This document shows, in pieces, positions 42,951 through 62,334 of a stretch of 64,000 nucleotides of DNA; the first letter of the stretch is position 1; each line of letters starts with the position of its first letter. A model generated the notes under the pieces. It was not told the origin of the DNA. It saw nothing but the letters and a program-made list of their open reading frames with translations, and did not search any database. Position numbers and translations under genes: made by a program. Source of the DNA: Synechococcus sp. (GTDB lineage: Bacteria > Cyanobacteriota > Cyanobacteriia > PCC-6307 > Cyanobiaceae); assembly GCA_047285805.1 (NCBI GenBank), contig JBJBCN010000002.1, positions 384,001 through 448,000 of the forward strand. The letters are read 5' to 3'.

Positions 42951-42972
42951 GGATGGCAGTGAAGAGCTCTGC

Positions 42973-44590: not shown

Positions 44591-45176
44591 CTGTAGCCAT
44601 CTACTACATTTAGGTTTAGGTACCAATGGTTCTCAGCCATCCCTGCAACTAAGTATTAGGGCCCCAGAAATTTGTACTGGGATTCACTGATAAGCCGCGT
44701 GCAGTATGTGAGTCGATAGCGAGGGCTGCAGTTACGAGTGGTGTTAGCGATAAGTGGATGGACTAGTGTTTTGCCTTCTCAAGAGCGGTAAGAATTTTTA
44801 TTAGGGGGAAAGTTCCTGTAATCGCTGTTAAAGTAGTTTGTGAACGTCATGTGGCTTGCGACCTTGAAATCGCGTCACGTAGCGGGCGAGCATTGATGGT
44901 TGTTGTAGGTCAACGCGACAATGAGATAGTCAGTGCTTTTTACTTTTGTAGTGACTGGGTGGTAAGGTATACGACTTTCTCAATAGAAACGAAGGATAGT
45001 GTTCATATGAACGGATTAGACTTTTCGAGAAGTATCCATATGATGGCGCCTGAGATCGGTTTCTACGGCGAAAAGTATCAATCGATTGACCATTCAGCGC
45101 TGTTCACAGGTACAGTCGTATTGAAAAAACAATTCAACATCTGAGTCCTGCGATCCTTATTATAAGTCATCCCATC

Positions 45177-45908: not shown

Positions 45909-46039
45909 GGATACAAGGGACTATATTAAGTCATGGGCATGGTCATGGAAAAAGTCAGAGATAGGAACTGCAAAACGCTTGATTAAATCTTCAGGTAAGC
46001 AATGATCCATCAATTGATACTTAATCGATCACTAAAAAG

Positions 46040-47683
46040 TCATCTACCCTCAAGATGTCGTAGGTCAACAAAATCAAGTATAGAAGACGAGTATGACAAG
46101 TTATACGGATTCATCCCTTCAAAGTAACCGGATCGAGTAGAGGACTGAATATTAACCACAGACGAGAGAAGGGAGCTAAGATTACTGGTATAACCTGTCA
46201 TTGAGGAAGAATAGTCATTTAACCTCTGGACCAAGGTGGTAATATCCGAGAACCCAGCCTTCAAAGCGACAAGCGTGTCATAGAAAGCTTTTTGAGAAGA
46301 CTTAATAGATTGATCACTCGCAATAAGTTCATTTGAATAGTTAATATAATTAGAGTAATATTGATTACTAGACTGTATGGTGTCAAGTGCAGATTGCTTT
46401 GCAGACTCCTTGGTTGATGATGCAGTCCTCCTTTGTGACCGTGCTGAAAGTGCATCCGCTCCAGAATCGAATAATTTCCAACTCATTGTGATAGCAATAC
46501 TATTACCCCATCCTGAATTGTCAGATTGTGAATAGCTGTCAATAGGAAGAGTACCGCTGTAAGGGGCTTCGCCGACAGTCTTGTATGAATAGGATGTTGA
46601 TGGAGACCAACCAAAGGATAGACCAAAGCTTGGTAGATAGCTAGACAAATAGTAGTCTGATTGACGTAGATAACCTAAGTAGCTATAATAACTACTATAG
46701 ATAGTATCGGAATAGATAAGGCTTGACCGAACAATCTCTTCACGACCTAGAGAGCTGAAACCAATTAAATCAGATATAGTCTTACTCATAAAGAACTTGG
46801 CTGAAATGGTCAACTCGTCAGAAGAAATGCCTATGTTAGATGAAAGAGAGGTATAATAATTATTGAAAGAAATAATAGCAGAAGAGAGATTATTCTGATA
46901 TAGACGCAGTTGAGCCAAGGACTGGGCAACATCTGGGACCGCGAGAAGTCCAATTTGATACTGTGCAACTGTCACCTTAAGCGATTCTGAGGCCGAGTAG
47001 ACGTTTTGTAGTTGAACAAGTATATCTTGGTAAGCAATCCAGACATTTATAGCATCAAGAAGGGATGAATTGTACTGAGATATGTCAGATGCAGTTGAAC
47101 TATATGCTGTAGAAAAGGAAACGTTGTTATAGTACCTAGCCAGGTTTATTGCTGTAGGATTAAAGATTGGGATAGAGAATGTTGGTTTAATACCCCTACT
47201 GTAAATCTGGCTTGAAGATGTATCGTATTCTTGAGTTTGACTTGGTTGGCCAGCTGCTGGAGTTGGGTATGTGAGAGTAGACGAACCTGTATAATTGTAT
47301 GACCATGAACCAGAATCCAGGGAAAAGCTCGGAGCAAATGCTTCTAGAAAGTAGGAACTACGTAAATCCTTGGAAGCCATATAAGAAAAATCAGCTGCCT
47401 TAATATTTGGAGAACGCTTTGTTTGTATGATTACATCATCTAGGGTCTCCAACAAAGGCGAATCGCTAGACTCATTTAAATAAAGGATTGGTTGTGGACA
47501 ATACTCCTTGAGACTCAGTAAACCTAATGCGACTCTCACAAAAGGTTCTCGGTCTAAGCAAAGTAATCTACTGATTGTTGGCTGATTGACTTTTCTAAAA
47601 TTGCGTAACTTAATTTGCTCTGCGTTTGCAGGTAAAACTGAGCTCAAGATAAGTGAAAAAACAAGCGGGATTCTGAAACGCAC
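46040..47683 (-). CDS. TolC-family outer-membrane efflux protein
   Basis: GTG start gives signal peptide MRFRIPLVFSLILSSVLPANA; AQYQIGLLAVPDV, SWKLFDSG and ALKAGFSDITTL fit OEP repeats; divergent from the HlyD/ABC genes. Confidence 0.8.
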   Translation of the reverse strand: MRFRIPLVFSLILSSVLPANAEQIKLRNFRKVNQPTISRLLCLDREPFVRVALGLLSLKEYCPQPILYLNESSDSPLLETLDDVIIQTKRSPNIKAADFSYMASKDLRSSYFLEAFAPSFSLDSGSWSYNYTGSSTLTYPTPAAGQPSQTQEYDTSSSQIYSRGIKPTFSIPIFNPTAINLARYYNNVSFSTAYSSTASDISQYNSSLLDAINVWIAYQDILVQLQNVYSASESLKVTVAQYQIGLLAVPDVAQSLAQLRLYQNNLSSAIISFNNYYTSLSSNIGISSDELTISAKFFMSKTISDLIGFSSLGREEIVRSSLIYSDTIYSSYYSYLGYLRQSDYYLSSYLPSFGLSFGWSPSTSYSYKTVGEAPYSGTLPIDSYSQSDNSGWGNSIAITMSWKLFDSGADALSARSQRRTASSTKESAKQSALDTIQSSNQYYSNYINYSNELIASDQSIKSSQKAFYDTLVALKAGFSDITTLVQRLNDYSSSMTGYTSNLSSLLSSVVNIQSSTRSGYFEGMNPYNLSYSSSILDFVDLRHLEGR

Positions 47684-47841
47684 AGAAATAACATCACTAT
47701 TTTTTGCCTTATAGGAGTCATCGACATTAACGTCAATAACACAGAAAGCGAAAAAACAATATTGTAACAATATCAAGAATTGCATCACTTGTTTGATGGT
47801 CAGGCGCCGATGAGTATCTTGCAAATATTAATAAGTTGTTT

Positions 47842-49077
47842 ATGGAACCATCAAAAGGCGAAGACATCGACTCCGTATCCAAGCACAATGGAGATCTAAA
47901 CTCAAAAATGGACAAATCAGATCCGTTACGATATAGTCAAAGCGTAAATATACTCATCACACCAATAAAATACTGGTCTGGATTGGCAGTCATTACTTCT
48001 GTCGGACTTCTAGGTTGGTCTGTATTTGGAAGGATACCCGAGAAAACCACTTCTAGTGGATTTATAACAAAACCATTTTTATTGGCTTCTGTTGGCCAAT
48101 CAGCCAGTAGCGACGGAACATACTCAAGTATCTTGGTAAAGCCTGGTGACAAAGTAGTCAAGGGTCAGTTACTCGCGAATCTTGCATTCCCAGCCCTATT
48201 GCAAAAAGTTGACGAAGCTAGAACTCAACTGAAAATTGGTAAGACTCAGCATCAATCACAGTATGAGACACCTTCATTTCAAAACTATTTGAATGAGCAG
48301 AAATCATCAGTCGACTCATCTAAGAAATATCTTATTGCAGCTCAAGGCATTGCAAAAACTGGGGCTATATCTGAGACGACAGTAAGGAACGCAAAACAAA
48401 GCTATCAAAGCTCAGTGCAATCACTGCTGTCGACTCAGAGTAAAGTGATCGAGTCAAACTCGAATATAGCAAAACTTGAAACGACACTAAATGCTGCTAT
48501 TACTACGCAAAAAGAGGCTTCAAATATCTATTCACCATATACAGGCATAGTATTAAATATCTTTCGGTCAAGCGGCCAACCTAATGTTCCGGGTAAACCA
48601 TTACTTCAGCTAGAAATAAATGCTAACGGGCAACCTTCACCGCAACAAAGTGATGGTTTAGCTGTTATTTCATTTTTTACTCCAACAGCCGCTGCTAAGT
48701 TATTGGTCGGACAAGAAGTACACATACTTCCCTCAAACATTCAGGCAAATACAGTAGGTAACGTAGTTGGAAGAGTATCAGAAATATCACTCTTACCCCT
48801 TACTCAGTCAGAGGCATCTGGAATTCTCGGTTCACAAGAGTTAGCTACCGAGCTTCTTCAAGATAACAAAAACATCCAGGTCACTATCGACCTGGAAGAA
48901 GATAAACAATCTCCTTCTGGCTTCAAGTGGATCAATGGGTCAGGACCTCCATCAACTCGTCCCTCACAATTCCCAAGGGTTGGCCTACAAGCTCAGGTTT
49001 CTGTGATTACTAAACGAATTCCCCCAATCACACTTGGTGTTCCGGCGCTCAAGAAATTCTTTGGTATTAGCTCATGA
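47842..49077 (+). CDS. HlyD-family membrane fusion protein (NHLP bacteriocin secretion type)
   Basis: TM ending WSVFGRIP, ILVKPGDKVVKGQLLA, IYSPYTGIV, SGFKWINGSGP. Confidence 0.9.
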   Translation: MEPSKGEDIDSVSKHNGDLNSKMDKSDPLRYSQSVNILITPIKYWSGLAVITSVGLLGWSVFGRIPEKTTSSGFITKPFLLASVGQSASSDGTYSSILVKPGDKVVKGQLLANLAFPALLQKVDEARTQLKIGKTQHQSQYETPSFQNYLNEQKSSVDSSKKYLIAAQGIAKTGAISETTVRNAKQSYQSSVQSLLSTQSKVIESNSNIAKLETTLNAAITTQKEASNIYSPYTGIVLNIFRSSGQPNVPGKPLLQLEINANGQPSPQQSDGLAVISFFTPTAAAKLLVGQEVHILPSNIQANTVGNVVGRVSEISLLPLTQSEASGILGSQELATELLQDNKNIQVTIDLEEDKQSPSGFKWINGSGPPSTRPSQFPRVGLQAQVSVITKRIPPITLGVPALKKFFGISS

Positions 49078-51272
49078 ATTTCAAGACACCTTCAAAAATC
49101 CAGGTAGAAGCTATTGAATGTGGAGCCGTTTCATACTGGATTATTAATGGTTTCTACAATAACTGGCTCACAAGTGAAGAAGCAAGAATAGATGTGAATG
49201 TTACAAAAGATGGATCAAATGCATACAATATTGTCCAAGCACTCAAGAGAAAGGGTTTTGATTCAGATGGTTTTCAACCTACCATAGATGAACTCAAGAG
49301 TAATAATCCGGAGTGCGGTCTTCCATGTATTGCTTGGGTAAATAAAGTCCATTGGGTTGTTCTAGAGAAGTTCGATGGGACAAGTTTTTTGATCAGCGAC
49401 CCAGCTAAGGGCCATAGAAAGTCAACTCCTGCAGACTTTGAAAAGGAATACTCAGGCCTAACACTAAGCGCACGTCCTACCAATACCTTCAAACCCCAAG
49501 GCACTAAACCCAATGCGATAGTTGATCTTGTCAGCATTGTTTCTTCCAACAAGAAAGCCATTGCACTTTATGTACTACTTGGATTAGTACTCACTATCCC
49601 CGTAGTGTCCTTAAGCTCATTTATCGGATTTTTTACAGACACGATCCTTGCCGAATCTGGTGCGAGCAATAGTTACATCTGGATCCTAACATTTATAGTA
49701 GGGCTATTCTTTCTTGGAAAATTCCTAGAGCAAATCATTCTGAGAAGGCTTCATTTGTCCGTATTGGCAGCATTGATCCAGAGAACTATCACGAAACTTC
49801 TCTCTCTTCCACTCTCTTTTTACCCACTCAGAGACCTTGGCGAGATAAGTCAGCGCATTACACTTAATATTAGCCTCTCAAATATTCTTACGGGCCCCTT
49901 ATCCAAGGCCTCCGTAGGATTAGCAACGATGGCGATATATGCTGCAATAATGCTGACATATAGTCCAATTCTTGGCATCCTTGTAATACTTCTGGGCGCA
50001 ATAAACTTTTATACTCTAATTAGCCTCGCAAAATCATTAAGCCAGTTCTCACAAAAGAGTTCCATGATGACGGGAAAGATGACATCTAATATTCTATATA
50101 TGGCCAATAACTTTCAATATCTGAAAGCCAATGGACTCGAGCTACCCCTATTTCAACAATGGAGCGATAACTTTTCTCAGTCTCAAACAACAAGCGAGCA
50201 AATGTCCTATATCCAGAAACGCAATACTTCAACTACTTCATTCCTTAATCAACTCGCCGATTATTTAATAGTGATTGTCTCTGGGCTCTTCATAATGATG
50301 GGAAATATTAGCTTAGGTGAATTCATCAGTTTCAGGCTCATATCACTCGCATTCTTGAAACCGATAAATACTCTTGCTGGAGTTAATTCTAAGTTCGCAA
50401 CAGCGGTTGGTGATGTCAACCGGCTGAAAGACTTATGGGATGAGAAGGACGATACCGTAGTCAGAAATTCTTACAAGATGATTGATCAGACTTCTTTTGA
50501 ACTTGACATTAACACAGCATTAAATCTTGTAAGTAATTCAAGCATTAGCCTAGATTCTGGAGGTTTTCGATACACACCAGGTTCACCACCTGTCTTTGAA
50601 GGCATTTCGCTCAATGCACAACATGGTGATGTCATTTCTCTTACTGGGCCACCAGGATCTGGAAAGACAACGCTTTTACAATCTCTGTCCTATCTCACAG
50701 ATCTCGATTCGGGCTCGATTACATTGTCGGACTCACCTATTGGTTCATACGCTCCATCGTTGTTAAGAAGCACCTTGTCCTTCACTTCTCAAGACAAGTA
50801 TATATTTACTGCATCGGCACTGGAGAATATCAAAGTCTTCGATCCACAGATTTCTCAAAGTAATATCTTAGATACTATCGAGCTTTATGGTCTTGCTTCA
50901 ATCTTAAGCTCTCTTCCTCAAGGACTTGCCACTGAACTTGGCCCTTCAGTACAAATAAGCAATTCCGATAAGATTATCATTCACTTACTTCGAAGCCTTG
51001 TCAGAAATCCCAGAATCCTAGTCATAGACGAGCTACTGGCTGACATAGATTCGGATTTCGCTCAGTCTTTACTTATCAGGATCTCCCAGAATATTCCGAT
51101 TGTTATCTTTGTATCACTGGATCCTAATTTAATTTCAATTGCAAATCGATCTCTCGTCTTGAGTTCAAAAGGTCTGCAAGAACTACCCCCACCAGAACTT
51201 ATCACGCGGATTAAAGCGCGCCAAGAATCACAATCTAAACCCCAAACTCAGTACAAGGAGGCTTCCAAGTGA
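49074..51272 (+). CDS. C39 peptidase-containing ABC exporter (NHLP type)
   Basis: QVEAIECGA (catalytic Cys), HWVV and ISDP triad residues, TM domain, Walker A GPPGSGKT, Walker B ILVIDE. Confidence 0.92.
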   Translation: MNFKTPSKIQVEAIECGAVSYWIINGFYNNWLTSEEARIDVNVTKDGSNAYNIVQALKRKGFDSDGFQPTIDELKSNNPECGLPCIAWVNKVHWVVLEKFDGTSFLISDPAKGHRKSTPADFEKEYSGLTLSARPTNTFKPQGTKPNAIVDLVSIVSSNKKAIALYVLLGLVLTIPVVSLSSFIGFFTDTILAESGASNSYIWILTFIVGLFFLGKFLEQIILRRLHLSVLAALIQRTITKLLSLPLSFYPLRDLGEISQRITLNISLSNILTGPLSKASVGLATMAIYAAIMLTYSPILGILVILLGAINFYTLISLAKSLSQFSQKSSMMTGKMTSNILYMANNFQYLKANGLELPLFQQWSDNFSQSQTTSEQMSYIQKRNTSTTSFLNQLADYLIVIVSGLFIMMGNISLGEFISFRLISLAFLKPINTLAGVNSKFATAVGDVNRLKDLWDEKDDTVVRNSYKMIDQTSFELDINTALNLVSNSSISLDSGGFRYTPGSPPVFEGISLNAQHGDVISLTGPPGSGKTTLLQSLSYLTDLDSGSITLSDSPIGSYAPSLLRSTLSFTSQDKYIFTASALENIKVFDPQISQSNILDTIELYGLASILSSLPQGLATELGPSVQISNSDKIIIHLLRSLVRNPRILVIDELLADIDSDFAQSLLIRISQNIPIVIFVSLDPNLISIANRSLVLSSKGLQELPPPELITRIKARQESQSKPQTQYKEASK

Positions 51273-54001
51273 CAATTCAACCATCATCAATAACCTACTA
51301 TACTAGAGTTTCCTGCAACATACCAGTGCCAACATCAGATGGCACTCTAAAGTATCACCTACTTGATCTCTTGCCAGGTTCGATAGATTCGTCATTCTGG
51401 CGTCAACTCATACCCACATTAAATATCGCATTCGAGGAACTTCCAGCCCTAGATGTTGCTGCAGCTTCGCTTTCTAAATATGCATCTGACCCTGGCAATG
51501 AGTATGAAGTTACGCGAAAGATTCTTGACAACCTCTATCTTAATGTTCGTCTCTCACTTTCAAAAAGTCGTCAAGCAGACATCTCCTTTAGAGAGTCTTC
51601 AACCCTTTCAGTTGATGCACCGACACAACGAAAGATTATCTCTAATCAATCTCTCTACCTTGCGCGTATCGAATCTGAAAAGGGTCTTCAGGCGTTTTCA
51701 ATTAATGATGAAGTGGGGGCAGTCAATGCTCCAACAAGATTACTTTTGCCTTCAGGTTCAAGTGTTACCATCTTTGGACAAACAAGCTGCAATATTCTCA
51801 CGACTCTCAGTAATGATGACATTCAAACACTTGTCGATACAATCGCCCATCTCCAGCTTTTACTTGTTCAGGATATAATATCTCGATCTAGGAAGTTAGA
51901 AGCAGACGAGTCTAAGGCCTATAGCTATGCCCTTCAGGCTTTGGAAGAATATATACCTCCATCTCTTAACAAGTCTGATTCAACAGTCTTATCTACAACC
52001 AGTGACTTTGACAATGTCTTTTACTGTGCTGGTGCTGTAGTCAGAAAGGAATCTCAAGCCTCCAATCTATATACGTCCGTCTCACTTGCAGACTGCACTA
52101 CAGAATATGACGCACTTGTTAAGTTGCTAAATGTTTCGTCAGTTCCCTATCGGATATCTGATCCACCTAATGTTTTTGCCGATAACCGTACCTATCTCTT
52201 TGTCAACGAAGATGAATCAGTTACTGCTCATGTTCGAACATCTTATGGATACCGAATAATCTCGAATACTACTACTACTCAAGCTAGAGATGGAGAACCG
52301 CACCCATCTGGGCAGATTATTACCATCTATCCAATTACTCCCGATAATGGAGGCCCTTGGAGCTTTATAAAAACTGGCCTTAGAGATGCTAATGGTCCGT
52401 TGCTTTCTGTGGTCGGGATATCACTCCTCCTTTCAGCAGCGACACTTATTCCTGCTTTTCTGATTGATCAATTGACATCATTATACATTCCTTATGGTAA
52501 CTACTATTCTCTAGTTTTTTTTGGTGTATCAGCTATTGCAGTTCTTGGAATTACGTATATCATCCAACTTCTCCAAGCACGTTACTTAGTCAGATTCGAG
52601 CTTATTACTGACTCTAATCTCCAGACAATGATGGTGGATAGGTTCCTCCGAATTAAGGTCGACGAAGTCGCTTCATACTCTCCTGGAAGTCTTCAAAACC
52701 GAATAATGGGTATATCACAACTTCGATCAACGATCACCTCTAATCTGACACCAATCTTGACCGCTTATCTATCAGTCATCTTCAACTTTATATATCTATT
52801 CGTCTTTTCATGGCAATTGTCGCTCGTCGTAATGGTAGCTGGAGCTCTACTGGGAACAGCTACATTTTGTGCAGCTCAGCAAAGACTAGTTTACTTTAAG
52901 CAGCTCACTGAGCTCGATGGCAAGCTTCTTGAATATACAAATGATTCCATTAATGGTATCCAAGTTCTCAGATCAACTGGAACAACTGATGAACTCCTGT
53001 CCCGTTTTACAAAAGTTGTAAAACCCCTTATCTCAGCAATCTTTAATGCAACTCGTCTACTTAATAGAGTAGACACGCTTTCTGGCTCAACTACTTACAT
53101 ACTGTATATCTTCTTGCTTCCCTTTGCATATCACCTTTCCCATTCAGGCGATTCTGGAGGACGTGTTTTAACGATAGGTGCCACAGTAAGCTTCCTCACC
53201 TGTACCCAAACTTTCCTTTCAAGCTTCGAATCGGCAATTGATAAGTCTATCTCAAGTTTTGTACAGGTGTCTACATACTGGTCTCGTGCAATGGATATCT
53301 TACATCTGCCTGCTGAGCCAGCGCATCTTGAATCAACACCAAAGAATTTTGATGGCTCATTGTCAGCAACTAATCTTGGATTTGTTTATCCATCCAAAGG
53401 TAATATCTCAAATAGGCCGGTCTTTAGCGGGCTCAGCTTTGAATTGAAACCTGCCACTTCTAACCTTATTCTTGGATCATCAAGATCTGGCAAGACAACA
53501 TTGCTTTCTGTCCTATCAGCACTTCATGATACTTACGATGGAACTGTCACGGCTTCTGGACATGACTTAAATACTATGTCACCACGTATTTATCGGTCTT
53601 TCATTTCCAATGTCCCTCAAAACCTTGTGATGAAACAAGGCAGCCTTAAGTCAAACATTAGCTCTGGCGTTTCTGTCTCATCTGATGAGATCGGATCACT
53701 CCTCGAAACCTTTGGGCTTAGTCAGTTCGTTGATTCTTTGCCAATGAAGCTTGGTACCGTAGTTAGTCCAAAGGCTTCGTCAATACCTGTACAGTATAAG
53801 AAAAGACTATTTCTCCTGAGAGCTGCTCTTAAGCGTTCCAAATATGTCTTCATTGATGATGCACTATCTGGTCTTCCTAGTAATGACATACAAAAAGTCT
53901 TGAACTACTTCACTTCAAATGGCGCCACTGTCTTAGCAACGTCATCGAATAGCAGTCTATCTACATACTTTGATCAGACGTTTAGTCTCGACAAGTCTTA
54001 G
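51269..54001 (+). CDS. Second ABC exporter subunit (permease + ATPase) with long N-terminal domain
   Basis: TM domain, Walker A GSSRSGKT, Q-loop NVPQ, SLPMKLGT, VFIDDA; overlaps the upstream ABC gene. Confidence 0.88.
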   Translation: MTIQPSSITYYTRVSCNIPVPTSDGTLKYHLLDLLPGSIDSSFWRQLIPTLNIAFEELPALDVAAASLSKYASDPGNEYEVTRKILDNLYLNVRLSLSKSRQADISFRESSTLSVDAPTQRKIISNQSLYLARIESEKGLQAFSINDEVGAVNAPTRLLLPSGSSVTIFGQTSCNILTTLSNDDIQTLVDTIAHLQLLLVQDIISRSRKLEADESKAYSYALQALEEYIPPSLNKSDSTVLSTTSDFDNVFYCAGAVVRKESQASNLYTSVSLADCTTEYDALVKLLNVSSVPYRISDPPNVFADNRTYLFVNEDESVTAHVRTSYGYRIISNTTTTQARDGEPHPSGQIITIYPITPDNGGPWSFIKTGLRDANGPLLSVVGISLLLSAATLIPAFLIDQLTSLYIPYGNYYSLVFFGVSAIAVLGITYIIQLLQARYLVRFELITDSNLQTMMVDRFLRIKVDEVASYSPGSLQNRIMGISQLRSTITSNLTPILTAYLSVIFNFIYLFVFSWQLSLVVMVAGALLGTATFCAAQQRLVYFKQLTELDGKLLEYTNDSINGIQVLRSTGTTDELLSRFTKVVKPLISAIFNATRLLNRVDTLSGSTTYILYIFLLPFAYHLSHSGDSGGRVLTIGATVSFLTCTQTFLSSFESAIDKSISSFVQVSTYWSRAMDILHLPAEPAHLESTPKNFDGSLSATNLGFVYPSKGNISNRPVFSGLSFELKPATSNLILGSSRSGKTTLLSVLSALHDTYDGTVTASGHDLNTMSPRIYRSFISNVPQNLVMKQGSLKSNISSGVSVSSDEIGSLLETFGLSQFVDSLPMKLGTVVSPKASSIPVQYKKRLFLLRAALKRSKYVFIDDALSGLPSNDIQKVLNYFTSNGATVLATSSNSSLSTYFDQTFSLDKS

Positions 54002-55337
54002 TCCACCGATCCAATATCTCTTCAAGATCCGTTCTTGTTGGATTCATAACTTTCTTGCAACCTGATTCCCTCGCTTCTAATTTCTGAACCTCTAATGTCT
54101 GTTTTATTATCTTTCTTGTGATACTGATTCCAAGTCTTGAGATCGACTTATATAGTAGCATTGCCAATCTAATGATTGACTTCCTCTGCATGATCTCATC
54201 TATCGATGATAAAGTTCTAATTGAGTCAAGGTAGCTCGATATCGCAAAACTGTTTCCCTGCGAAGTCAACAACAAACCTTCCATTGTATCAACTATATAT
54301 TCACGTATAGCATATCTTATAAACGCGGATCGGACTAGGTAAGTCTTCTTATAAGCACCTGACAAGCTTCCCCAATCACGTCTCTGGATCAAGTCACTTA
54401 TAAACTGATTCAAGTCACTGCTAATCACAGTAATATCATTGCGGATACCCTCTGCAAGTAGCAACTGTCTATAAAGCTGTTCCTTCATTACGTCAGCATG
54501 TAGATTAGTATCCAGTATTGTGAGATCTCTAACCGACTGTGTCGACAGTGTCAGCCCATCAAGTTCAGAGTCTCTCGTATCAATATAGACATATGGAGCG
54601 AGTACAAAGTCATCTATAGCACTCTTGCCTGACCTGATACTCTCCACAGATCTATCTATCTCTGCCTGTGTGATGTATTGCGCATTTCGTTGAGGCAGTA
54701 CAAGCAACTCTGCTTCCCGGATAGTCATTTCTAGATCAATACTCTTATAGTCTATATACTCCTCCTTTAAGACCCGAACTACGTCTTTGCTAGCAGAACC
54801 AGCCACTCTATCCATATATTCTTCTATACGCTTCCAGTCTCTCTCCCCAAATGATAGTGTCGAAAGATAACTAACAAGCAAATCTAGGTGATCCTTTAAC
54901 TCTCTATCTTCTACCTTTTCTGCTAATATTCTTAAGTTGATTAATGGTATGCTCAAATGTCTGTAGCCTGCTTCGTTTAACTCATGCAGTAGTCCTACCT
55001 CGTCATCACCTGTACTAGGATTCTCAATATAGTAGCTGTATACGTCCCCAAAGCCGATCATTCCACAAGACTGCATTTCTACAGCTCGTAATGCACCCAT
55101 GCTTGAACAACCAATAACAGTGTATCCAGATTCAATAACCTCTTTTATCTCCCGATGAAGAATGGCGAATTCTTCAAAAAAGTATCCATCTACTACTACT
55201 AACACCTCTACAGAACTATTCTGCATTACATAGTTAACTAAGTCCCCTGCCTTTGCAGGTGGCTGGATGTCCCAACCACAGAAGATATCTTTACTTCCTG
55301 AAGATGGACCTACAAATACAGTTCTCTTATTGATCAT
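53982..55337 (-). CDS. TfuA-like protein 2 with C-terminal extension
   Basis: VFVGPS, PPAKAGDL, VDGYF...ILHREI, GCSSMGALRAVE, GMIGFGDVY, DDEVGLLH, SIPLINLR; ATGA overlap with the YcaO stop. Confidence 0.92.
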   Translation of the reverse strand: MINKRTVFVGPSSGSKDIFCGWDIQPPAKAGDLVNYVMQNSSVEVLVVVDGYFFEEFAILHREIKEVIESGYTVIGCSSMGALRAVEMQSCGMIGFGDVYSYYIENPSTGDDEVGLLHELNEAGYRHLSIPLINLRILAEKVEDRELKDHLDLLVSYLSTLSFGERDWKRIEEYMDRVAGSASKDVVRVLKEEYIDYKSIDLEMTIREAELLVLPQRNAQYITQAEIDRSVESIRSGKSAIDDFVLAPYVYIDTRDSELDGLTLSTQSVRDLTILDTNLHADVMKEQLYRQLLLAEGIRNDITVISSDLNQFISDLIQRRDWGSLSGAYKKTYLVRSAFIRYAIREYIVDTMEGLLLTSQGNSFAISSYLDSIRTLSSIDEIMQRKSIIRLAMLLYKSISRLGISITRKIIKQTLEVQKLEARESGCKKVMNPTRTDLEEILDRWTKTCRD

Positions 55338-56356
55338 AATGGGAAGCCTGTCAACATAGATCCTTGCCGAAGACTTGGTGACGGCCAAGCAAATACTTTG
55401 CACACATGCACCGGATCTATCGGGAACCTTGTCTGTATATCTACGTACCCGATCTGAATACCCTGCCTGTTCGCCGATTCAAGCAACTTGTTTCTCGTAT
55501 CTATACTGTACTTGTTCGACTCTATCCCTTCATGTCCTATATAGTCAATAACTTCACTCGTTCGTTCCACCGTATCTGTATACTCTTCATACTGAGCTGC
55601 GTAGAACCAGTCATCTCTCGAGGCTGCAATTCTCATCAACCACGTCTGCATTGCCTCAGCTATACAGTCAGTAATTGCTTGTTGTGGACAGTCACCAAGT
55701 CCAAATGCATTAAAGCCACCAGTGACACTTCTTTCTTTTGACTCAATTGAGCATACCGAAATAGGCCAAGCTGACTTATATACATAACACCTTAGGTCAC
55801 TCACCTTCTTCTTCATCTGAATAATCAACTCTCTATTGTGTGACGATAGATGATCTAAGCTTAACTCGTATCTCTCGGCCCTAGATATGATTACTCGTTC
55901 TACAACTTCTACCAAGCCAGATACTAACGCAAGCTCACTGTTAGTATGAGCACCAAGCCCAGTAGTACCCATTGGATACTTGTTTACCAGTCTAAGCGGA
56001 TTATTTAGCCTATACTCTACTGATTCTAATGGGAAATACTCGACAGATCCATTAAGAGCATTCTTACCAACTATACAGTTCACTTGATTAGATAATCTAT
56101 CATCTTTAATTGGCAAGCTACTCTGACGCCTGACTGTCTCATTGTCTACATTCTCTGACGCATATCTTTCAATTGCCTCAACTGCTGTTGCCAGCCACGC
56201 AGTTTCATCGGTCCATCCTTTACCGCTGTCAACAGTCAAGTGAATCGCGCTTGGCCGACATGACTGGTAGACATGAATTGGAAAGTCGTCATATCCGCTT
56301 ATACAACCAATCCTAGTAACCCCAATGTTATTCAATACAGACTCTATTTCACTCAT
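55334..56356 (-). CDS. YcaO-family protein 2
   Basis: IGVTRIG, SCRP...VDSGKG, VEAIERY, TTGLGA, EVVER, AEAMQT...IAASRDD. Confidence 0.88.
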   Translation of the reverse strand: MSEIESVLNNIGVTRIGCISGYDDFPIHVYQSCRPSAIHLTVDSGKGWTDETAWLATAVEAIERYASENVDNETVRRQSSLPIKDDRLSNQVNCIVGKNALNGSVEYFPLESVEYRLNNPLRLVNKYPMGTTGLGAHTNSELALVSGLVEVVERVIISRAERYELSLDHLSSHNRELIIQMKKKVSDLRCYVYKSAWPISVCSIESKERSVTGGFNAFGLGDCPQQAITDCIAEAMQTWLMRIAASRDDWFYAAQYEEYTDTVERTSEVIDYIGHEGIESNKYSIDTRNKLLESANRQGIQIGYVDIQTRFPIDPVHVCKVFAWPSPSLRQGSMLTGFPL

Positions 56357-57725
56357 TGTAAAATCCTTTCAGAAGTGCCGAGATCGACTGATAGCATCTC
56401 TCTTCATCAAGCAGGGTTATAATCTGTCCGAACTCATAGCCTCTTCTATCTCGGATGCACTCGTCCAGTATTACACTTAGGAGTACATACCATCTATCCT
56501 TATAACCACATGACTTTAACCATCCACTGTCAAAACTAGCCATATCAGCGCTGGGATTCACCAATCGATATCTGCTTCTCCAAGCAAGATATACGAGGGG
56601 GTCGTCACTCTTGGTCGATCTATCCAATACTGGGATCGTTATATCTTGTCTTTGGCCCAAATACATTCTTATAATATTCTCATAGCTCACCTCTGCCCCT
56701 CTACCTATAAGTCTAAATTCTGGCCCCGACTCGATCTGACAATTGTATCTCCGGATAATACCTTCGCAATAACTTGCCCGTAAGATATCATTATCTATAT
56801 TGCAATTCCCGAACACCTTAATCTTATCTGCTAGTTGACTTATGTTGATATAAGCTCCTCTTTTCTCGTCCCAGCCTGTTTCCACAATACACTCCTCTTC
56901 GACATATTCTGGCAAGCCGTTCCACCTATTTACTATGGGCATACACCCATTGAGTGCACACTCGATAACGACCTTTCCTTGCGTCTCTTCCGTCGTCGTA
57001 GAAAGTACTATGCAAAGTGAACTCTCTCTAAATAACAAGTCCCTCTGTCCTGTATCTGAATCAAATATCCATTCTATACATACATTTTGATCATTAGCCA
57101 CTTGCTTTAGTTGATTCAAATAATGATAGCTCTTCTCCGATTGATCAGAAAAGAGACATATAGCCATCGTTGGTTTCTTACGTAGAAGCCCGACAGCTCT
57201 GATGGAGTCTACAATATTCTTCGTATATTCAAGTCTTGATACAACTACTATTCGATTCTTTCTCGCTTCGATGTGCGCACTTTTCAAGGAGGATATACGT
57301 ACTGGCTTAACGATGCCCCTCACTCTTGCACCTACTGGTAGGAAGTTCTCTACAAGATCCTTAGAAAAGACCGTGTTAAATACTAATGTATCTCCAGAAC
57401 TCATGAGTAGCACTACAGACCTTATGTATTTCAAGCGACTAACTATAGTATTAATATAGTAGTGCAGGGTTATATCCTTCCGAGCTCTGTTCCTCCACTC
57501 CATTAAATCATCCCAATACTCGCATACAAACATTGATGGCCATATCTCAATATCGTTAAAATGGGACAGGTAGCTTTCCAGGCTACCTATCTCTTCCTTG
57601 CAACTAAAACTATATACTAATACGTTAATCCCTTCCCTTGACCTGTCAGACACGAAATAGTCATTGAACACCTTGGCTGTTGCATTCTCGTTCTCTGACC
57701 CGTGAACTAACCGTACTATAACCAT
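56349..57725 (-). CDS. GT4-like (GT-B fold) glycosyltransferase
   Basis: VVVSRLEYTKNI and EETQGKVVIECALNGCMPIVNRWNGLPEYV (E-x7-E signature). Confidence 0.8.
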   Translation of the reverse strand: MVIVRLVHGSENENATAKVFNDYFVSDRSREGINVLVYSFSCKEEIGSLESYLSHFNDIEIWPSMFVCEYWDDLMEWRNRARKDITLHYYINTIVSRLKYIRSVVLLMSSGDTLVFNTVFSKDLVENFLPVGARVRGIVKPVRISSLKSAHIEARKNRIVVVSRLEYTKNIVDSIRAVGLLRKKPTMAICLFSDQSEKSYHYLNQLKQVANDQNVCIEWIFDSDTGQRDLLFRESSLCIVLSTTTEETQGKVVIECALNGCMPIVNRWNGLPEYVEEECIVETGWDEKRGAYINISQLADKIKVFGNCNIDNDILRASYCEGIIRRYNCQIESGPEFRLIGRGAEVSYENIIRMYLGQRQDITIPVLDRSTKSDDPLVYLAWRSRYRLVNPSADMASFDSGWLKSCGYKDRWYVLLSVILDECIRDRRGYEFGQIITLLDEERCYQSISALLKGFYNE

Positions 57726-59287
57726 CTACTTCTCTCCATACAAATATACATTATGGCTAACTGCCACATATCATGGAAGTACAATCCAAGCACATCATCT
57801 GTATTGCCTATCCAGAATAGATTCTTATTAAGTAGTGATCTCACATCCTTTACAGCTCTAAGGGCTTCCCCCTCTTCCAACGAATCAATATATAGTAAGT
57901 GTGGCCTCAACTGCTGTTCTTGACGCAAGAAAGTATTCCACTCTCTTACCCATTCTTCATATCTCTTACAGGCTAGAAGTTCCTCAAACAGTCTATTCCT
58001 ACCATAGCTATGGAATAGTACGTTTCCAGCCAGAAACTCTAGCAATATAAACAACCTCTCCTCATTCTCTATGTCTATAGACTCACCTCTGCATACACAG
58101 TCAACTATATGCTTCTCGTACCTACCCTTGAAGACCTGGCTACATATCCGCTCATCTCTCACATCTAATACACAATCTAACCACTCAACGGCAGAACTAG
58201 TAAACGATATTGCATCTTCTTTGCTTATCGTGGCTCCAGACGAGTTCGATCCACATTGAACTACTTTGTACCTTCTTATTGAATCATAAAGCCATTCCGA
58301 TTCTATTCTGTCTGTAAATGACCGTACTTCAATTGGAGGCTGTCTTTCGGCTCTAAGTATTTTACTCACGGCATCCTGCCTACAGAACATTGAGGTAACT
58401 TCACATTCTTCACTGCTTGTCTGACCTTTTAGCCTCGCCATGTCATCCACTAGGCTCCTCGTCCAAGTCTTTATGTATAATTCATGAACAATAGCGGGTG
58501 AACGTAAAAAGCAAAATATCATAAAATTGGAGATCGTATTAGCATGATCTGAACTCTCCGATATATTCACGACACGCGAATCTTTACTTAGCTGCCTTGG
58601 AATATATGGAGTCCATGCAACACTAATGTTGGAAACTGTATTACTTTTCCCCAACTCGCCTAGCCTATAAAGCGTTAAGAGGCTCTCTAGATCATTTCGT
58701 TTCTGGGACTGAAAACGATCTACGCATCTATTACTAGCCTCTTTCCCAATTAATGCTTCCATATCTTTCTTTATCTTACCCCATGTTCTTTGCTCAAAAT
58801 AACACAACTTCTCTCTTTCTATAAGGATACTCTTGATTTCACGATCTATCATGCCAACATCTTCCAAATGGTTAAGCCAGAAATATATCTCTACAAATGC
58901 CACCGTTGTTGGTTTCCAGCCTTCATCCTCTCCCATATGCAATAGCGCGACGTCGGAATCGTCACGTATACCATTCTTAAAATATTCATATATCTTGCCG
59001 TAGCCCTTCATTCCAAAACAATCTAGTTCTGAGGCTCTTAGTGCACCAAGGGAGGAGACCCCATAAATATTCTTGCCAGCCTCCAGAGTTAATAAAAACT
59101 CTTTGTGCCACGGTGCAGGTATTGTCTTGTATAACCCGTCTGCAACAATTATGTTCTCAATATCTTTATCTGTGAGATCTTCGAATAAATCAGACTGCTT
59201 GCATGGGCCTTTTAATGTTATTCCTTCAACTAGTGATTCTTTGATTCCATAAAGGCTTGGACCAGCGTATAAGACTGTATTTGACAT
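57716..59287 (-). CDS. TfuA-like protein 1 with C-terminal extension
   Basis: LYAGPSL, GPCKQSDL, ADGLY...PWHKE, GVSSLGALRASEL, GMKGYGKIY, DDSDVALLH, SQKRND. Confidence 0.92.
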   Translation of the reverse strand: MSNTVLYAGPSLYGIKESLVEGITLKGPCKQSDLFEDLTDKDIENIIVADGLYKTIPAPWHKEFLLTLEAGKNIYGVSSLGALRASELDCFGMKGYGKIYEYFKNGIRDDSDVALLHMGEDEGWKPTTVAFVEIYFWLNHLEDVGMIDREIKSILIEREKLCYFEQRTWGKIKKDMEALIGKEASNRCVDRFQSQKRNDLESLLTLYRLGELGKSNTVSNISVAWTPYIPRQLSKDSRVVNISESSDHANTISNFMIFCFLRSPAIVHELYIKTWTRSLVDDMARLKGQTSSEECEVTSMFCRQDAVSKILRAERQPPIEVRSFTDRIESEWLYDSIRRYKVVQCGSNSSGATISKEDAISFTSSAVEWLDCVLDVRDERICSQVFKGRYEKHIVDCVCRGESIDIENEERLFILLEFLAGNVLFHSYGRNRLFEELLACKRYEEWVREWNTFLRQEQQLRPHLLYIDSLEEGEALRAVKDVRSLLNKNLFWIGNTDDVLGLYFHDMWQLAIMYICMERSRWL

Positions 59288-60468
59288 TATCCAGCTGCCG
59301 GTGAATGTATCTCTCTTGAGATCAAGTTAGCACTTTCAAGATTAAGTCCACCAAGTCGACTCAGATTTCTATATCCATTGTAATTATACCCATGAAGCCC
59401 TTCAACAAGTACCCTTACAACGTGAATCATCTCGTCAGCTTGATCATACGTGTGTATATAAATGCTCTCTCCATGTTCACGCACTACTTCATCCACGATC
59501 TGTTCTAATGATGGATTATCTCCTAGTGTCCCCTTCCTTAAATCGACCCCATCCCCTACTCTCTTCCCAATCTTGTCCTTAGGAAATGTAGTCAGATATA
59601 GATCCTTGTTCATATCTTCTCTAGATCCCGAAATTGATATTACTCTTGCTTGGTGAGCTTCTGTTATTGCCCTGGTTGCTGCAATTACTCCGTTTGTATA
59701 AGTACCATATCCACACCATGCTTGCATGCCATCCGATATGAGGCACTTATAAGTCGGAAATGCTTCCCAAATAGTGTTATCGTACAAACCAACGACTATA
59801 TTGCTATCTACTGACAACTTATCTCCCAATACCTTCAGTTCTCCTTCTTTCAGCACTGCGCTATCAACTTCTATATCTGTCGATCGCCCATTCTGTTCAT
59901 TCAACGTTATACAATGTCTTTCTATTACCTCGTGTATACCTGATCTGCATGCATCATCCCAGCTTATCCCCGACGCTAGTCCATTTGATGACAAATAAAA
60001 GCATCCTCTTTTTCTCGGATTTGTCATCCTTCTAAAATCCAGGCTTACGCTGTCAAACGGTATGTAAACTTCTTCCTTTGTGATCATGTCAATCGCCGTT
60101 GACCATTTTTCCTTGCTATTTCTTGTATAATCGATCATTGTTATAGCCAAACGATCTACCGAGCATATTCGACCTTCTAACTCACTCTCTTTACATTCTA
60201 TAGTCCAATCTGCTTCTTCTGCGATATGGCATTCAAAGCTTTCCATTAATGCAGATATATTTGCTTGCAGCTGAGTAACACCTTTGCCTCCACTCTGCGA
60301 CAACACTTTTGAATTTGGCCTGTAGGCTATTGATACACCTAATTCTTCTTTTACAAACCCACTAATACTTGCCAACCGTGATACAGAAAACTTACTCTTG
60401 ATCGTATTTAGATACGTGAGCAAACTCTCTGATGCAGTCTTGTTTTCCTTAATTCTGGTTTCAATCAC
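59287..60468 (-). CDS. YcaO-family protein 1
   Basis: VSRLA, YRPNS...SQSGGKG, ALMESFE, SSNGLASG, HEVIERH, RAITEAHQAR...ISGSRED. Confidence 0.92.
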   Translation of the reverse strand: MIETRIKENKTASESLLTYLNTIKSKFSVSRLASISGFVKEELGVSIAYRPNSKVLSQSGGKGVTQLQANISALMESFECHIAEEADWTIECKESELEGRICSVDRLAITMIDYTRNSKEKWSTAIDMITKEEVYIPFDSVSLDFRRMTNPRKRGCFYLSSNGLASGISWDDACRSGIHEVIERHCITLNEQNGRSTDIEVDSAVLKEGELKVLGDKLSVDSNIVVGLYDNTIWEAFPTYKCLISDGMQAWCGYGTYTNGVIAATRAITEAHQARVISISGSREDMNKDLYLTTFPKDKIGKRVGDGVDLRKGTLGDNPSLEQIVDEVVREHGESIYIHTYDQADEMIHVVRVLVEGLHGYNYNGYRNLSRLGGLNLESANLISREIHSPAAG

Positions 60469-60472
60469 GCTT

Positions 60473-60516
60473 AAAAAAAAAAGCTGACGATCGCTCGCAA
60501 TGGCGATTGTCAGCTT
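60473..60516 (-). terminator. Intrinsic terminator/attenuator between precursor and ycaO
   Basis: Minus strand AAGCTGACAATCGC-loop-GCGATCGTCAGCTT running into a 10-T tract. Confidence 0.85.
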
Positions 60517-60540
60517 ATCTTATCTTGTTTGAACTACAGG

Positions 60541-60750
60541 TTATGCGCCAGCAGCACCAGCTGCAACACCAACTCCTGCCCATTCGACAGTGCTCCCACC
60601 AGCGGCCTTTTGAAGGTCTACACCGCGCGTCTTGACAGCCTCAGCCATGTGCTCCTTTTGGAATTTGCTCCCAATCTGACCCATGAGCTCCGGCGTAGGA
60701 CCACTCTTCTTGAGTTCATCCAGAAAAGCATGAGCGTTTTCGACTGACAT
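60541..60750 (-). CDS. RiPP precursor: Nif11-like leader, double-glycine site, 17-aa core STVEWAGVGVAAGAAGA
   Basis: MSVENAHAFL resembles Nif11-type leader starts; DLQKAAGG matches the (E/D)L-x-x-(V/A)-x-GG C39 cleavage consensus; directly upstream of ycaO. Confidence 0.88.
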   Translation of the reverse strand: MSVENAHAFLDELKKSGPTPELMGQIGSKFQKEHMAEAVKTRGVDLQKAAGGSTVEWAGVGVAAGAAGA

Positions 60751-60820
60751 GATTTACATGCGGGTACCTTGTAAGGCTAGCCATGGCCTTGATGGATGCC
60801 AACTCGCATGTAACGAAAGG

Positions 60821-61483
60821 CTAATCTTTGCTAGACCCCCATACTGCTGAGGTGCATTCTTTGATACCAAGCTTCTTTCTCACCGCTTCAGTCTTAAGCG
60901 ATAGATCATCTTCTAAATGTCTTAAGCCACAGTATTGACTTGCTTCAAGCCCTTTGGACAACCCATCAATCATTGCTTTTATATGTTGCATGCTTTCCTT
61001 TGTCGGCTCCTTTAAATGACTTGCAATCACTTTAAATAATATAATTGCTGATAGGGTCGTCATTGATTGACCTGCGTAGAAAGCCTGAAGCGCAGTTTCA
61101 CCAAACGGTGTCGTATTGTAGCCAGTAAGCACATGTAGGATGTCGTGCGTATGTCGTAATCTTGTCCTTACATATTCTTGCCGGCTCATTTGAGAGTTCA
61201 CTGGAAACCTTATCATTCCAGGAATACTATGTATAAACTCTTGCTCTTCAGACATTCTCATCAGATGCATTCCGAGATCTTTCCCTAATGTTCCCTCCTC
61301 CATGAATATCAGGTCATCGAGACTGTACTCAGAAGGTCTCCACCTTTCCATAGCATCATCTGCAATAAATGAGTGCAGATGAACGACCTTCCACTGATTC
61401 GAGGCCGCTAATTCCTCCGCTTCAACCCTGATCTCACCAAGTTGGACATCTCTTTTAAACAGATCACCTATTTGTAGTGCCAT
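60821..61483 (-). CDS. Coq4-family protein
   Basis: EGTLG and RLRHTHDILHVLTGY...GETALQAF (HDxxH...E metal motif). Confidence 0.85.
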   Translation of the reverse strand: MALQIGDLFKRDVQLGEIRVEAEELAASNQWKVVHLHSFIADDAMERWRPSEYSLDDLIFMEEGTLGKDLGMHLMRMSEEQEFIHSIPGMIRFPVNSQMSRQEYVRTRLRHTHDILHVLTGYNTTPFGETALQAFYAGQSMTTLSAIILFKVIASHLKEPTKESMQHIKAMIDGLSKGLEASQYCGLRHLEDDLSLKTEAVRKKLGIKECTSAVWGSSKD

Positions 61484-61530
61484 TCATAGTCTCATTTCTT
61501 ACACTATACACACTATGTCGCCAGTCTTAA

Positions 61531-62334
61531 ATGTCTTCATCATTTGATGTTTATCGTTTTTTTGATCGTCACCCATCGTTTGACTGCATCCTTCCTCTTT
61601 CTTCGTCTAGCTACTTAGTCCGTTCTGGCTCTACATTCTATTCTTGTCATCATTTCGTCACCTTTCATTCGCTTCACAGTCTTTATAGCCTTTACCTTCA
61701 TTTTCTTACCCTCTCTCAATCTACTTTTATCTCCCTGCCCCCATTGTCTGAGATCTTCCAGCTTCCTGATAACAGTTGTTTGCTCATAACTGAGTTTATT
61801 TCTGGTCGTAGACCCTCCTTTTCTGAGCTCTCGTTTCTTCTGCCAGAAATGGTTTCATTTGGTTTAACGGCTACATCTTCCTCTCCACCTTCTGATCACC
61901 TTATTCCTAAAACCCCTAACTCCTTTGAGCTTTTGCGAGCTCAAATACAAGCTTCTCCTTGCTTTCACTCCCTACCCGCTTGTCTTTCACGCTTTCTCTT
62001 GCTTGACCCTCCTCATGGTTCCCTTTCTTTTTGCCATGGAGATTTTTTGCCTCAGAATCTTGTCATTGATCGTCATGACAATGTTTTTCTAATTGATTGG
62101 GAGTTGACAGGTCTCTCCATCCAGCAGTTTGACCTTGGCTGGCTCAATGCTTATTGCATTCTCTCTAGCCTCTCGCTCCCATTTGCTGAATCATCATATC
62201 CCCACGCACTTGATTATTTCACCAGATTTGGGCTGGTTCGATTTGCTTATCGAATCCTCCAGCAGTCGCTTCCTCAAAAGATGACTAGTGAGCGGATGCT
62301 CACTATCATCTCTCTTTTTAATAGATCTATCTGA
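61531..62334 (+). CDS. Aminoglycoside-phosphotransferase (APH)/choline-kinase-like protein
   Basis: LITEFISG, CHGDFLPQNL, LIDWE, FDLG motifs. Confidence 0.82.
   Translation: MSSSFDVYRFFDRHPSFDCILPLSSSSYLVRSGSTFYSCHHFVTFHSLHSLYSLYLHFLTLSQSTFISLPPLSEIFQLPDNSCLLITEFISGRRPSFSELSFLLPEMVSFGLTATSSSPPSDHLIPKTPNSFELLRAQIQASPCFHSLPACLSRFLLLDPPHGSLSFCHGDFLPQNLVIDRHDNVFLIDWELTGLSIQQFDLGWLNAYCILSSLSLPFAESSYPHALDYFTRFGLVRFAYRILQQSLPQKMTSERMLTIISLFNRSI

Follow-up and report, generated by a model that had tools for sequence, protein, structure and literature searches.

What might a picocyanobacterium make with a small peptide gene that lies beside two pairs of YcaO and TfuA genes? The question is raised by a stretch of 64,000 nucleotides from Synechococcus sp. 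(assembly GCA_047285805.1, contig JBJBCN010000002.1, positions 384,001 to 448,000 of the forward strand), hereafter the window, in which twelve genes between positions 46,040 and 62,334 had been proposed in a first-pass annotation to form a new system for a peptide that is made on ribosomes and modified after translation (RiPP). Few natural products contain backbone thioamides, and the thioamidated RiPPs known so far, themselves few, all come, to our knowledge, from Actinobacteria. Our results indicate that the window probably carries a horizontally acquired RiPP cluster for an exported, linear peptide with a thioamidated backbone. This assessment is based on the family and structure matches of the YcaO and TfuA proteins, on the linkage of ThiS genes in related loci, and on the C39/NHLM export genes. 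Further, the cluster belongs to a conserved and chemically uncharacterized family in aquatic picoplankton. The steps proposed below for thioamidation, tailoring and export are drawn from family knowledge and gene association.

Gene content and operon organization

Domains were assigned with Pfam and NCBIfam profiles on the translated open reading frames (ORFs) of the window. All twelve cluster genes were found to be intact open frames and each named gene carried its expected domain, so that the first-pass description of a minus-strand run, a divergent kinase gene and a set of export genes was borne out. The minus-strand run comprises a gene for a Coq4-family metalloprotein-like enzyme (60821..61483; PF05019, E 3.8e-10), a precursor peptide of 69 amino acids (60541..60750, from the translation), YcaO1 (59287..60468; PF02624, E 5.3e-40), a long-form TfuA1 (57716..59287; PF07812, E 2e-29), a GT4-type glycosyltransferase (GT; 56349..57725; PF00534, Glycos_transf_1, E 2.9e-9), YcaO2 (55334..56356; PF02624, E 3.8e-21) and a long-form TfuA2 (53982..55337, with the ORF extending to 55403; PF07812, E 7.2e-30; NF033432, E 1.9e-35). 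On the plus strand, a small APH-like kinase gene (61531..62334; PF01636, E 2.8e-9) diverges from the Coq4-like gene.

From ycaO1 to tfuA2, the end of each gene overlaps the start of the next, and the same arrangement is found in the hlyD/C39-ABC/ABC2 genes. Between the precursor stop and the GTG start of ycaO1, scanning and folding of the sequence revealed a terminator-like hairpin on the minus strand with a 14-bp stem and a T-run (60473..60516; -21.3 kcal/mol, z -3.1). A precursor gene followed by a hairpin and then by enzyme genes is the usual layout where a precursor is expressed strongly and some transcription continues into the enzyme genes. The precursor would thus be transcribed at a high level, and the terminator would be leaky, with a fraction of the transcripts reading into the translationally coupled ycaO1-tfuA1-GT-ycaO2-tfuA2 genes. 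Regarding gene starts, TfuA2 probably begins at Met23 (55337), with an ATGA overlap with the ycaO2 stop, because its homologues align from residues 26-29. The gene call for YcaO1 in the collection is shorter (P0010, 319 amino acids, 81% coverage); the longer frame is likely the gene, since conservation among homologues extends to the N-terminus that starts with the GTG at 60468.

The cluster lies entirely within a low-GC foreign island of about 19 kb (44160..63140), characterized below. None of the island ORFs scanned gave a LanM, radical SAM, SagB-type dehydrogenase, E1-like or HopA1 domain, which, HopA1 aside, agrees with what had been noted at first pass, nor did the Pfam scan of the island recover a flavoprotein decarboxylase domain such as that required for an aminovinyl-cysteine (AviCys) ring.

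YcaO and TfuA proteins

The YcaO superfamily carries out several chemistries, and various lines of evidence point the window enzymes towards thioamidation. Among NCBIfam profiles, YcaO1 matched the thioamidation family TIGR03266 (E 2.5e-35) better than SagD-type profiles (E 1.3e-16), and the same was true of YcaO2, albeit at lower scores (E 2.1e-16 and 1.5e-10, respectively). In the PDB, both proteins matched only the archaeal thioamide-forming structures 6pe3 and 6ci7, the best match of YcaO1 being 6pe3 (MJ1094; E 6.3e-10). Paired Glu motifs (ME..E and E..ER) and an S/G-R-[ED]-D motif are invariant among 35 YcaO1 and 7 YcaO2 homologues; in YcaO2, residues K46, E60, E63, R64, E150, E153, R154, E234, Q237, R247, D248 and D249 are conserved in 7/7 homologues. 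We take the invariant Glu, Arg and Asp motifs of both enzymes to be the ATP/Mg site.

The second element is TfuA, which is described in passages of PMC13063428 and PMC8153245 as hydrolysing thiocarboxylated ThiS and feeding sulfide to YcaO. A TfuA gene adjoins ycaO1 in all 14 loci that extend that far, and TfuA1 and TfuA2 are the only two TfuA genes of the host genome. Furthermore, in 4/4 loci of one architecture variant (variant B, described below), the gene directly upstream of ycaO1 belongs to the ThiS family, which fits directly with the TfuA/ThiS sulfur route. Each YcaO would accordingly use ATP to activate backbone amide carbonyls of the Ala/Gly/Val-rich core, and its TfuA partner would supply sulfide, taken from a ThiS-type carrier in thiocarboxylated form whose gene lies elsewhere in the genome; thioamides would result.

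At 523 and ~451 amino acids, the two TfuA proteins have roughly double the usual length, and the nine complete TfuA1 homologues all fall between 516 and 555 amino acids. The structural model of TfuA1 comprises a TfuA domain (residues 1 to ~216) and a helical C-terminal region of about 300 residues. The modelled N-terminal domain superimposes on the Methanosarcina acetivorans TfuA 6xp8 with Z 24.4 and a root-mean-square deviation of 2.7 over 209 residues. The predicted local distance difference test (pLDDT) was 71 for the whole protein and 66.5 for the C-terminal region alone, for which wide searches with Foldseek and VIA-align returned only a 40-residue helical hairpin (Z 5.8). Because it is all-helical in the models, this region does not look like a winged-helix RiPP recognition element (RRE), and the models are too poor for the fold to be called new. 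A complex prediction for YcaO1, TfuA1 and the precursor scored 0.26 against a mark of 0.32.

Precursor peptide family

The precursor gene is present as a single copy in the genome, and its product comprises a 52-residue leader ending in AAGG, MSVENAHAFLDELKKSGPTPELMGQIGSKFQKEHMAEAVKTRGVDLQKAAGG, followed by a 17-residue core devoid of Cys, STVEWAGVGVAAGAAGA. The leader had been called Nif11, which held at a distance only. The window peptide scores below the Nif11 cut-offs, both for Pfam PF07862 (15.8 bits versus 23.8, E 0.017) and for TIGR03798 (13.6 bits versus 32.3, E 0.06), and 11 of 19 family members gave Nif11 matches at E <= 1, the best being 8.4e-4. Four relatives of 89-92 amino acids with the same core type carry a true Nif11 domain (34.6-51.6 bits), and as these pass the cut-off, the window leader appears to be of a derived, shortened Nif11 type; in a joint alignment, it corresponds to a Nif11 leader minus about 14 internal residues. 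Judged from these alignments, the leader is only distantly Nif11.

Within the family, the alignment displays a Gly-Gly site invariant in 19/19 members and a nearly invariant Trp. A search with the single sequence found only three other clusters at 90% identity that resemble the window peptide. A profile of the 19 members, run against 1.84 billion representatives, returned 24 at E <= 0.001, of which some were long proteins with repeats, and a wider profile retrieved, among the 8000 best candidates, at least 204 clusters at 90% identity, most of which came from ENA and Tara metagenomes. From 130 peptides, 120 distinct cores were obtained, with a length of 16-28 residues (median 21) and a composition rich in Ala (36%) and Gly (16.5%). 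A Trp occurs within the first 9 residues in 112/120 cores and a Ser or Thr within the first 5 in 113/120; in 111 cores, small or aliphatic residues make up the final six positions, and Cys is present in 15. The family thus keeps, in sequence terms, one shape, with a polar head, a Trp and an Ala/Gly tail, and is conserved rather than hypervariable.

The Ser/Thr kept at the start of the core would also suit an alternative in which the YcaO proteins perform other ATP-dependent backbone chemistry, such as formation of an N-terminal Ser/Thr azoline or an amidine, with TfuA as an accessory and no thioamide in the product; the range of chemistries within the superfamily and the matches to SagD-type proteins of thiazole/oxazole-modified microcin (TOMM) systems point the same way. 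Nevertheless, an E1-like/ThiF-type partner, an RRE and a SagB dehydrogenase are all missing from the island, both enzymes match the thioamidation family and the archaeal thioamide structures more closely, and ycaO1 is adjoined by a TfuA gene and, in variant B, by a ThiS gene. We consider this alternative quite improbable.

If thioamidation is the chemistry, as we favour, the two YcaO/TfuA pairs would probably each serve a separate part of the core. The cores of variant C, which has a single pair, are shorter and end in ...GVGVAALF without the Ala/Gly run; this is the sole hint that the second pair, missing where cores lack the long Ala/Gly tail, may serve that tail.

Export machinery

The export genes include, on the plus strand, an HlyD-type membrane-fusion protein of the NHLP/NHLM bacteriocin export type (47836..49077; TIGR03794, E 7.3e-43), a C39 peptidase-ATP-binding cassette (ABC) exporter (49074..51272; PF03412, E 1.9e-22; TIGR03796, E 2.6e-117, below cut-off) and a second ABC exporter subunit (51269..54001; TIGR03797, E 2.6e-63, aligned from residue 353). 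On the minus strand lies a TolC-like outer-membrane efflux protein (OEP; 46040..47824; PF02321, E 3.2e-14), homologues of which adjoin the exporter in loci L006, L011, L012, L018 and L034. The three NHLM families are the best NCBIfam matches of their proteins, with scores below the equivalog cut-offs (147 versus 156, 393 versus 853 and 215 versus 709 bits, respectively). The C39 domain carries Gln10, Cys16, His93 and Asp109, as read by eye in the translation, and the C39-ABC protein is expected to cut after the Gly-Gly of the leader. The assembled C39-ABC/ABC/HlyD/OEP machine would then export the 17-residue product. As a separate observation, the second ABC subunit bears about 350 N-terminal residues before its membrane domain (window 51269-52320), an extension kept in homologues of 906-934 amino acids; residues 1-377 gave no Pfam family match.

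The association of the peptide gene with these functions also bears on whether the YcaO/TfuA pairs could modify a cellular protein, in the manner of McrA or uL16, with the small peptide gene being unrelated. Thioamidation of proteins by YcaO is known, as stated in a portion of PMC13063428. However, a homologous peptide gene accompanies ycaO1 in 15 of 19 metagenome loci and in the complete same-genus genome G156, its Gly-Gly site is invariant and a C39 exporter is linked to it; moreover, the cluster is absent from nearly all relatives, unlike a housekeeping target. We therefore regard modification of a cellular protein as very unlikely indeed, and an exported peptide as the probable substrate.

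Tailoring genes

Between the two enzyme pairs, the GT had atlas look-alikes that were all of the GT4/Glycos_transf_1 type and had no sequence relative in the PDB; it is present in the 7/7 loci that bear the Coq4-like and kinase genes and reach past tfuA1. The kinase and Coq4-like genes form a divergent pair in all nine loci that cover this place. In the kinase, the motifs HGDxxxQN and DWE are invariant among 5/5 homologues, and its weak PDB matches include a corramycin phosphotransferase (E 0.027). Its gene shows unusual composition (AT skew ~-0.4, GC skew ~-0.4, N-terminal half of the protein rich in Ser, Leu and Phe), and homologues still align from the first Met. In the Coq4-like protein, residues H113, D114, H117 and E129 (HDxxH-x11-E) are invariant in 6/6 homologues, and PDB matches were obtained to 3msq (E 3.6e-14) and 6e12 (E 5.3e-6). 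Eukaryotic COQ4 is reported, in the available part of PMC10680789, to be necessary for oxidative C1 decarboxylation in coenzyme Q synthesis, and in thioamitide pathways an APH-like kinase together with a HopA1-like protein dehydrates Ser/Thr, as described in part of PMC8153245. No description of a Coq4-type RiPP tailoring enzyme was found in the literature searched, which offered just a passing mention in PMC10783134.

The GT4, the kinase and the Coq4-like metalloenzyme may modify the core at its polar N-terminus (Ser-Thr-x-Glu-Trp), likely by Ser/Thr glycosylation and/or phosphorylation plus one further step. Whether the kinase and Coq4-like protein would act on Ser/Thr, on Trp or on the C-terminus is not separable from sequence, and any such assignment is an inference only. 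Beside the kinase gene of some variant-A loci, we also observed a small 2-oxoglutarate (2OG)-Fe(II) oxygenase-like ORF (L009:613-1143, L010:2956-3453, L013:1912-2409 and L023:1985-2482), with sub-threshold matches (E 1.6e-4 to 8e-4), which is absent from the window.

Several points weigh against an exported thioamidated peptide. All scores to curated NCBIfam families were below the equivalog cut-offs, so function is assigned at family level, from distant relatives. The island has no ThiS, ThiF or MoeB gene, three ThiS-family genes being located elsewhere in the host genome, and no leader-binding RRE domain was recognised in the cluster. Among the island ORFs scanned, the kinase lacks the HopA1-type partner of thioamitide pathways, and the substrates of the GT, kinase and Coq4-like proteins are not readable from sequence. 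Finally, a handful of variant-C cores are all that suggests separate tasks for the two YcaO/TfuA pairs.

Distribution and architecture variants

YcaO1 had 429 relatives at E <= 1e-10 and belongs to a distinct clade, with 35-84% identity, found almost only in metagenomes. Searched with the alignment of this clade, metagenome contigs yielded 19 loci and 185,579 species genomes yielded one distant actinobacterial YcaO/TfuA locus only; among 400 other genomes of the same family, four gave matches at E <= 1e-20, of which only G156 was strong. In a separate draw, the cluster was found in 0/36 same-genus genomes. Close relatives with 79-93% identity exist. Across 20 other loci (19 metagenome loci plus G156), the precursor, the enzymes and the NHLM-type exporter stay linked, which is far above chance and answers favourably the search for homologous clusters that the first-pass annotation had proposed.

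Architectures, established by tblastn of the window proteins on the loci of relatives, fall into three variants. Variant A, with the order kinase, Coq4-like, precursor, YcaO1, TfuA1, GT, YcaO2, TfuA2 and exporter, is represented by the window, L012 and L013, and in part by L005, L009, L010, L011 and L023. Variant B (L015, L016, L018 and L021; partial, L014, L017, L019 and L020) comprises 1-4 precursors, a ThiS-family gene, YcaO1, TfuA1, YcaO2 and TfuA2, as well as a sulfotransferase-like gene in L015 and L018 and an exporter in L018, and is devoid of the GT, Coq4-like and kinase genes. Variant C (G156/L034 and L007; partial, L008 and L022) includes the kinase, Coq4-like, precursor, YcaO1, TfuA1 and GT genes, followed directly by the exporter, with no second pair. 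From the genes shared across variants, the core of the system consists of the precursor, YcaO1, the long TfuA1 and the exporter.

The host itself is placed among picocyanobacteria by its HemC and Ppa proteins, whose 90%-identity clusters have named members from Synechococcales, Synechococcaceae and Cyanobium. The loci range from 25 to 50% GC. A flanking MnmG fragment of L012 shares 88-92% identity with host-family genomes, which indicates that this contig is also picocyanobacterial; the flanking MscS gene of L018, a contig of 28% GC, is at most 37% identical to host-family genomes.

Genomic island and insertion site

GC profiles of the window show ~62% up to about 44 kb and ~41% from there until about 63 kb. 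By blastn, the flanks of this region matched G156 at 84% (window 42307-44143) and 78% (63147-63999), and in G156 both matches lie only about 560 bp apart, that is, the site is empty there; the insert therefore corresponds to approximately window 44,160-63,140. The island contains the full gene set and exceeds the coordinates given at first pass by ~1.9 kb on the left and ~0.8 kb on the right. The gap in G156 is occupied by an intact gene of the LOG/Lysine_decarbox family encoding 342 amino acids (L034:1309-2337, minus strand; Pfam PF03641, E 1.4e-29). By tblastn with this gene, the window retains on the minus strand (43639..44158) a decayed remnant of residues 161-340 only, spread over three frames with stops. 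Read from this alignment, the insertion cut the host gene at about residue 161 and the remnant decayed later; the cluster is, on these sequence comparisons, horizontally acquired on foreign DNA and mobile. No tRNA, convincing flanking direct repeat or Rfam family was found at the island borders, and domain scans revealed no integrase among the island ORFs. A viral origin was considered and rejected, since YcaO1 had no relatives in the viral contigs searched.

The cluster of G156 itself (variant C) lies on a separate island of 41-44% GC, about 2.5 kb past the empty site, which suggests an island hot spot at this locus. That island spans L034 5800-19650 (G156:C1, ~109.8-123.6 kb), past an M32 carboxypeptidase gene, and carries a different version of the cluster, with a single YcaO/TfuA pair at 45-57% protein identity.

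Such an island could represent silent or decaying cargo, with genes that look intact and no product in this strain. The rarity of the cluster among family genomes, its foreign composition and the decay of the neighbouring host gene since the insertion would all agree with this. Conversely, 12/12 frames are open with their catalytic motifs kept, the gene overlaps and the terminator are preserved, and the identity of the relatives, together with an architecture maintained across loci of such different GC content, speaks against it; we consider silent cargo decidedly unlikely.

The island also encodes a multi-pass membrane protein of 243 amino acids (45177..45908, plus strand) with no Pfam family. 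One of its look-alike clusters in the atlas bears the name 'divalent heavy-metal cations transporter' (0.95), and there is a weak lead to ZIP (0.82); tblastn found no match to it in other cluster loci. Antagonism, metal binding and signalling are candidate biological roles of the product. In particular, the product could be a released thioamide peptide that binds metal of the copper type, a ribosomal counterpart of polythioamide chelators rather than an antimicrobial. The polythioamide closthioamide is called copper-chelating in a passage of PMC7183216, the core architecture is conserved and not hypervariable, no immunity gene was recognised in the cluster, and the membrane protein offers a lead of its own. 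Against this stand the absence of that protein from the other loci and the lack of a linked uptake receptor or regulator, while a Gly/Ala-rich hydrophobic tail and a double-glycine leader would suit membrane-active bacteriocins as well. We consider a metal-binding product unlikely. A bolder proposal, which we advance as rather a long shot, is that the family constitutes a new class of Trp-anchored, poly-thioamidated Ala/Gly ligands of copper-type metals from aquatic picoplankton, not toxins, in which the kinase and Coq4-like proteins would form a new two-component tailoring unit (e.g., phosphorylation-dependent elimination or oxidative decarboxylation) and the C-terminal region of TfuA would be a leader-binding module replacing the RRE.

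Comparison with known systems

Thioamitides (thiostreptamide S4) and thiovarsolins of Actinobacteria share with the window a YcaO and a TfuA beside a small precursor and an APH-like phosphotransferase in the cluster, according to the part of PMC8153245 available. A further likeness, from the same source, is the thioamidation of small aliphatic residues, described there and predicted here. The window cluster differs in having no HopA1-like partner, cysteine decarboxylase or core Cys, and in adding a second YcaO/TfuA pair, double-length TfuA proteins, a GT4, a Coq4-like enzyme, a double-glycine leader and type I export. The McrA thioglycine system of methanogens (YcaO plus TfuA, with a ThiS-COSH donor) provides the best-matching families (TIGR03266 and NF033432) and structures (6pe3, 6ci7 and 6xp8), as well as a parallel to the ThiS linkage of variant B. 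In contrast to that system, the substrate in the window would be an exported peptide and not an enzyme subunit, scores are far under the equivalog cut-off (122 versus 365 bits), and TfuA has the extra helical region of ~300 amino acids.

Nif11/NHLP-leader precursors with NHLM export (Haft 2010, cited in the accessible part of PMC8120280) resemble the window in the double-glycine leader and in the NHLM-type HlyD, C39-ABC and second ABC proteins, and the window leader departs from them by the ~14 missing residues and the score below cut-off. Unlike prochlorosin clusters, the island has no LanM/ProcM and no core Cys, and its core shape is conserved, whereas prochlorosin cores are hypervariable. 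Azoline-forming TOMM systems, or linear peptides that contain azol(in)es (LAP), differ by their E1-like/RRE partner and SagB, which the island lacks, and by the Ala/Gly-rich core found here. With the Coq4 family (COQ4 and the cyanobacterial homologues 3msq and 6e12/Alr8543), the window protein has the HDxxH-x11-E motif in common, but its gene belongs to a peptide cluster and has the small kinase gene as its partner throughout (9/9 loci).

The closest precedent is the genome mining of Malit et al. (2021; PMC8120280, Fig. 4D and Fig. S20), in which, in the sections available, Nif11-like precursors are reported in YcaO/TfuA clusters with ThiS/ThiF, GT4, C39-ABC and NHLP export in various combinations. 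The designation as a new RiPP system is consequently too strong. Within the listing available from that article, no architecture combines a Coq4-like enzyme with a kinase or shows two YcaO/TfuA pairs, none of the clusters is chemically characterized there, and Synechococcus, Cyanobium and Prochlorococcus go unmentioned in its supplement text, so the related statement that no characterized pathway with this enzyme set is known from picocyanobacteria stands as far as this source reaches. In PMC10783134, which surveyed the RiPPs of marine Synechococcus in 2023, the YcaO clusters described are of the azoline/SagB type, and TfuA is nowhere mentioned. No paper describing the window cluster was found in the literature searched, most subscription journals lying outside its coverage. 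Hence, the window cluster is of the YcaO/TfuA-thioamidated RiPP kind, already known in general, and it is the combination that is new, distinguished by a core family with Trp and Ala/Gly, two enzyme pairs, long TfuA proteins and the kinase/Coq4-like/GT4 set. The product suggested at first pass, a secreted linear thioamide peptide, possibly glycosylated or phosphorylated, gains support from the TIGR03266, 6pe3 and 6ci7 matches, the 6xp8-like fold, the ThiS genes of variant B and the joint retention of the genes.

A complete, mobile cluster of the thioamide type is thereby documented in a picocyanobacterial genome of culturable type. Two YcaO/TfuA pairs on one short substrate would permit a direct test of site selectivity, the double-length TfuA proteins and a kinase/Coq4-like pair without a known role in peptide maturation are testable points, and variants A, B and C constitute a natural 'deletion series' linking genes to parts of the core. 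If bioactive or metal-binding, the product would bear on allelopathy or trace-metal chemistry in picoplankton; its ecological weight is limited, because the cluster occurs in about 1% of the family genomes searched. We see in it a lead for natural-product research and enzymology, not a new principle.

Additional observations

Far from the island, window positions 5345-5470 showed 43% identity over 42 amino acids to an integrase-like ORF found beside the cluster in three metagenome loci (L010, L013 and L023). In L006, where no precursor gene was detected, a fragment of a Mutator-family transposase (8401-9505; E 2.7e-24) lies between the exporter and ycaO1. Lastly, another genome of the same family harbors a distant TfuA-YcaO pair with 25-31% identity (L037, G299:C1:1851000-1870999; GC 34%), near a C39-ABC exporter and a sulfotransferase-like stretch, and this locus may represent another cluster of the thioamide type.

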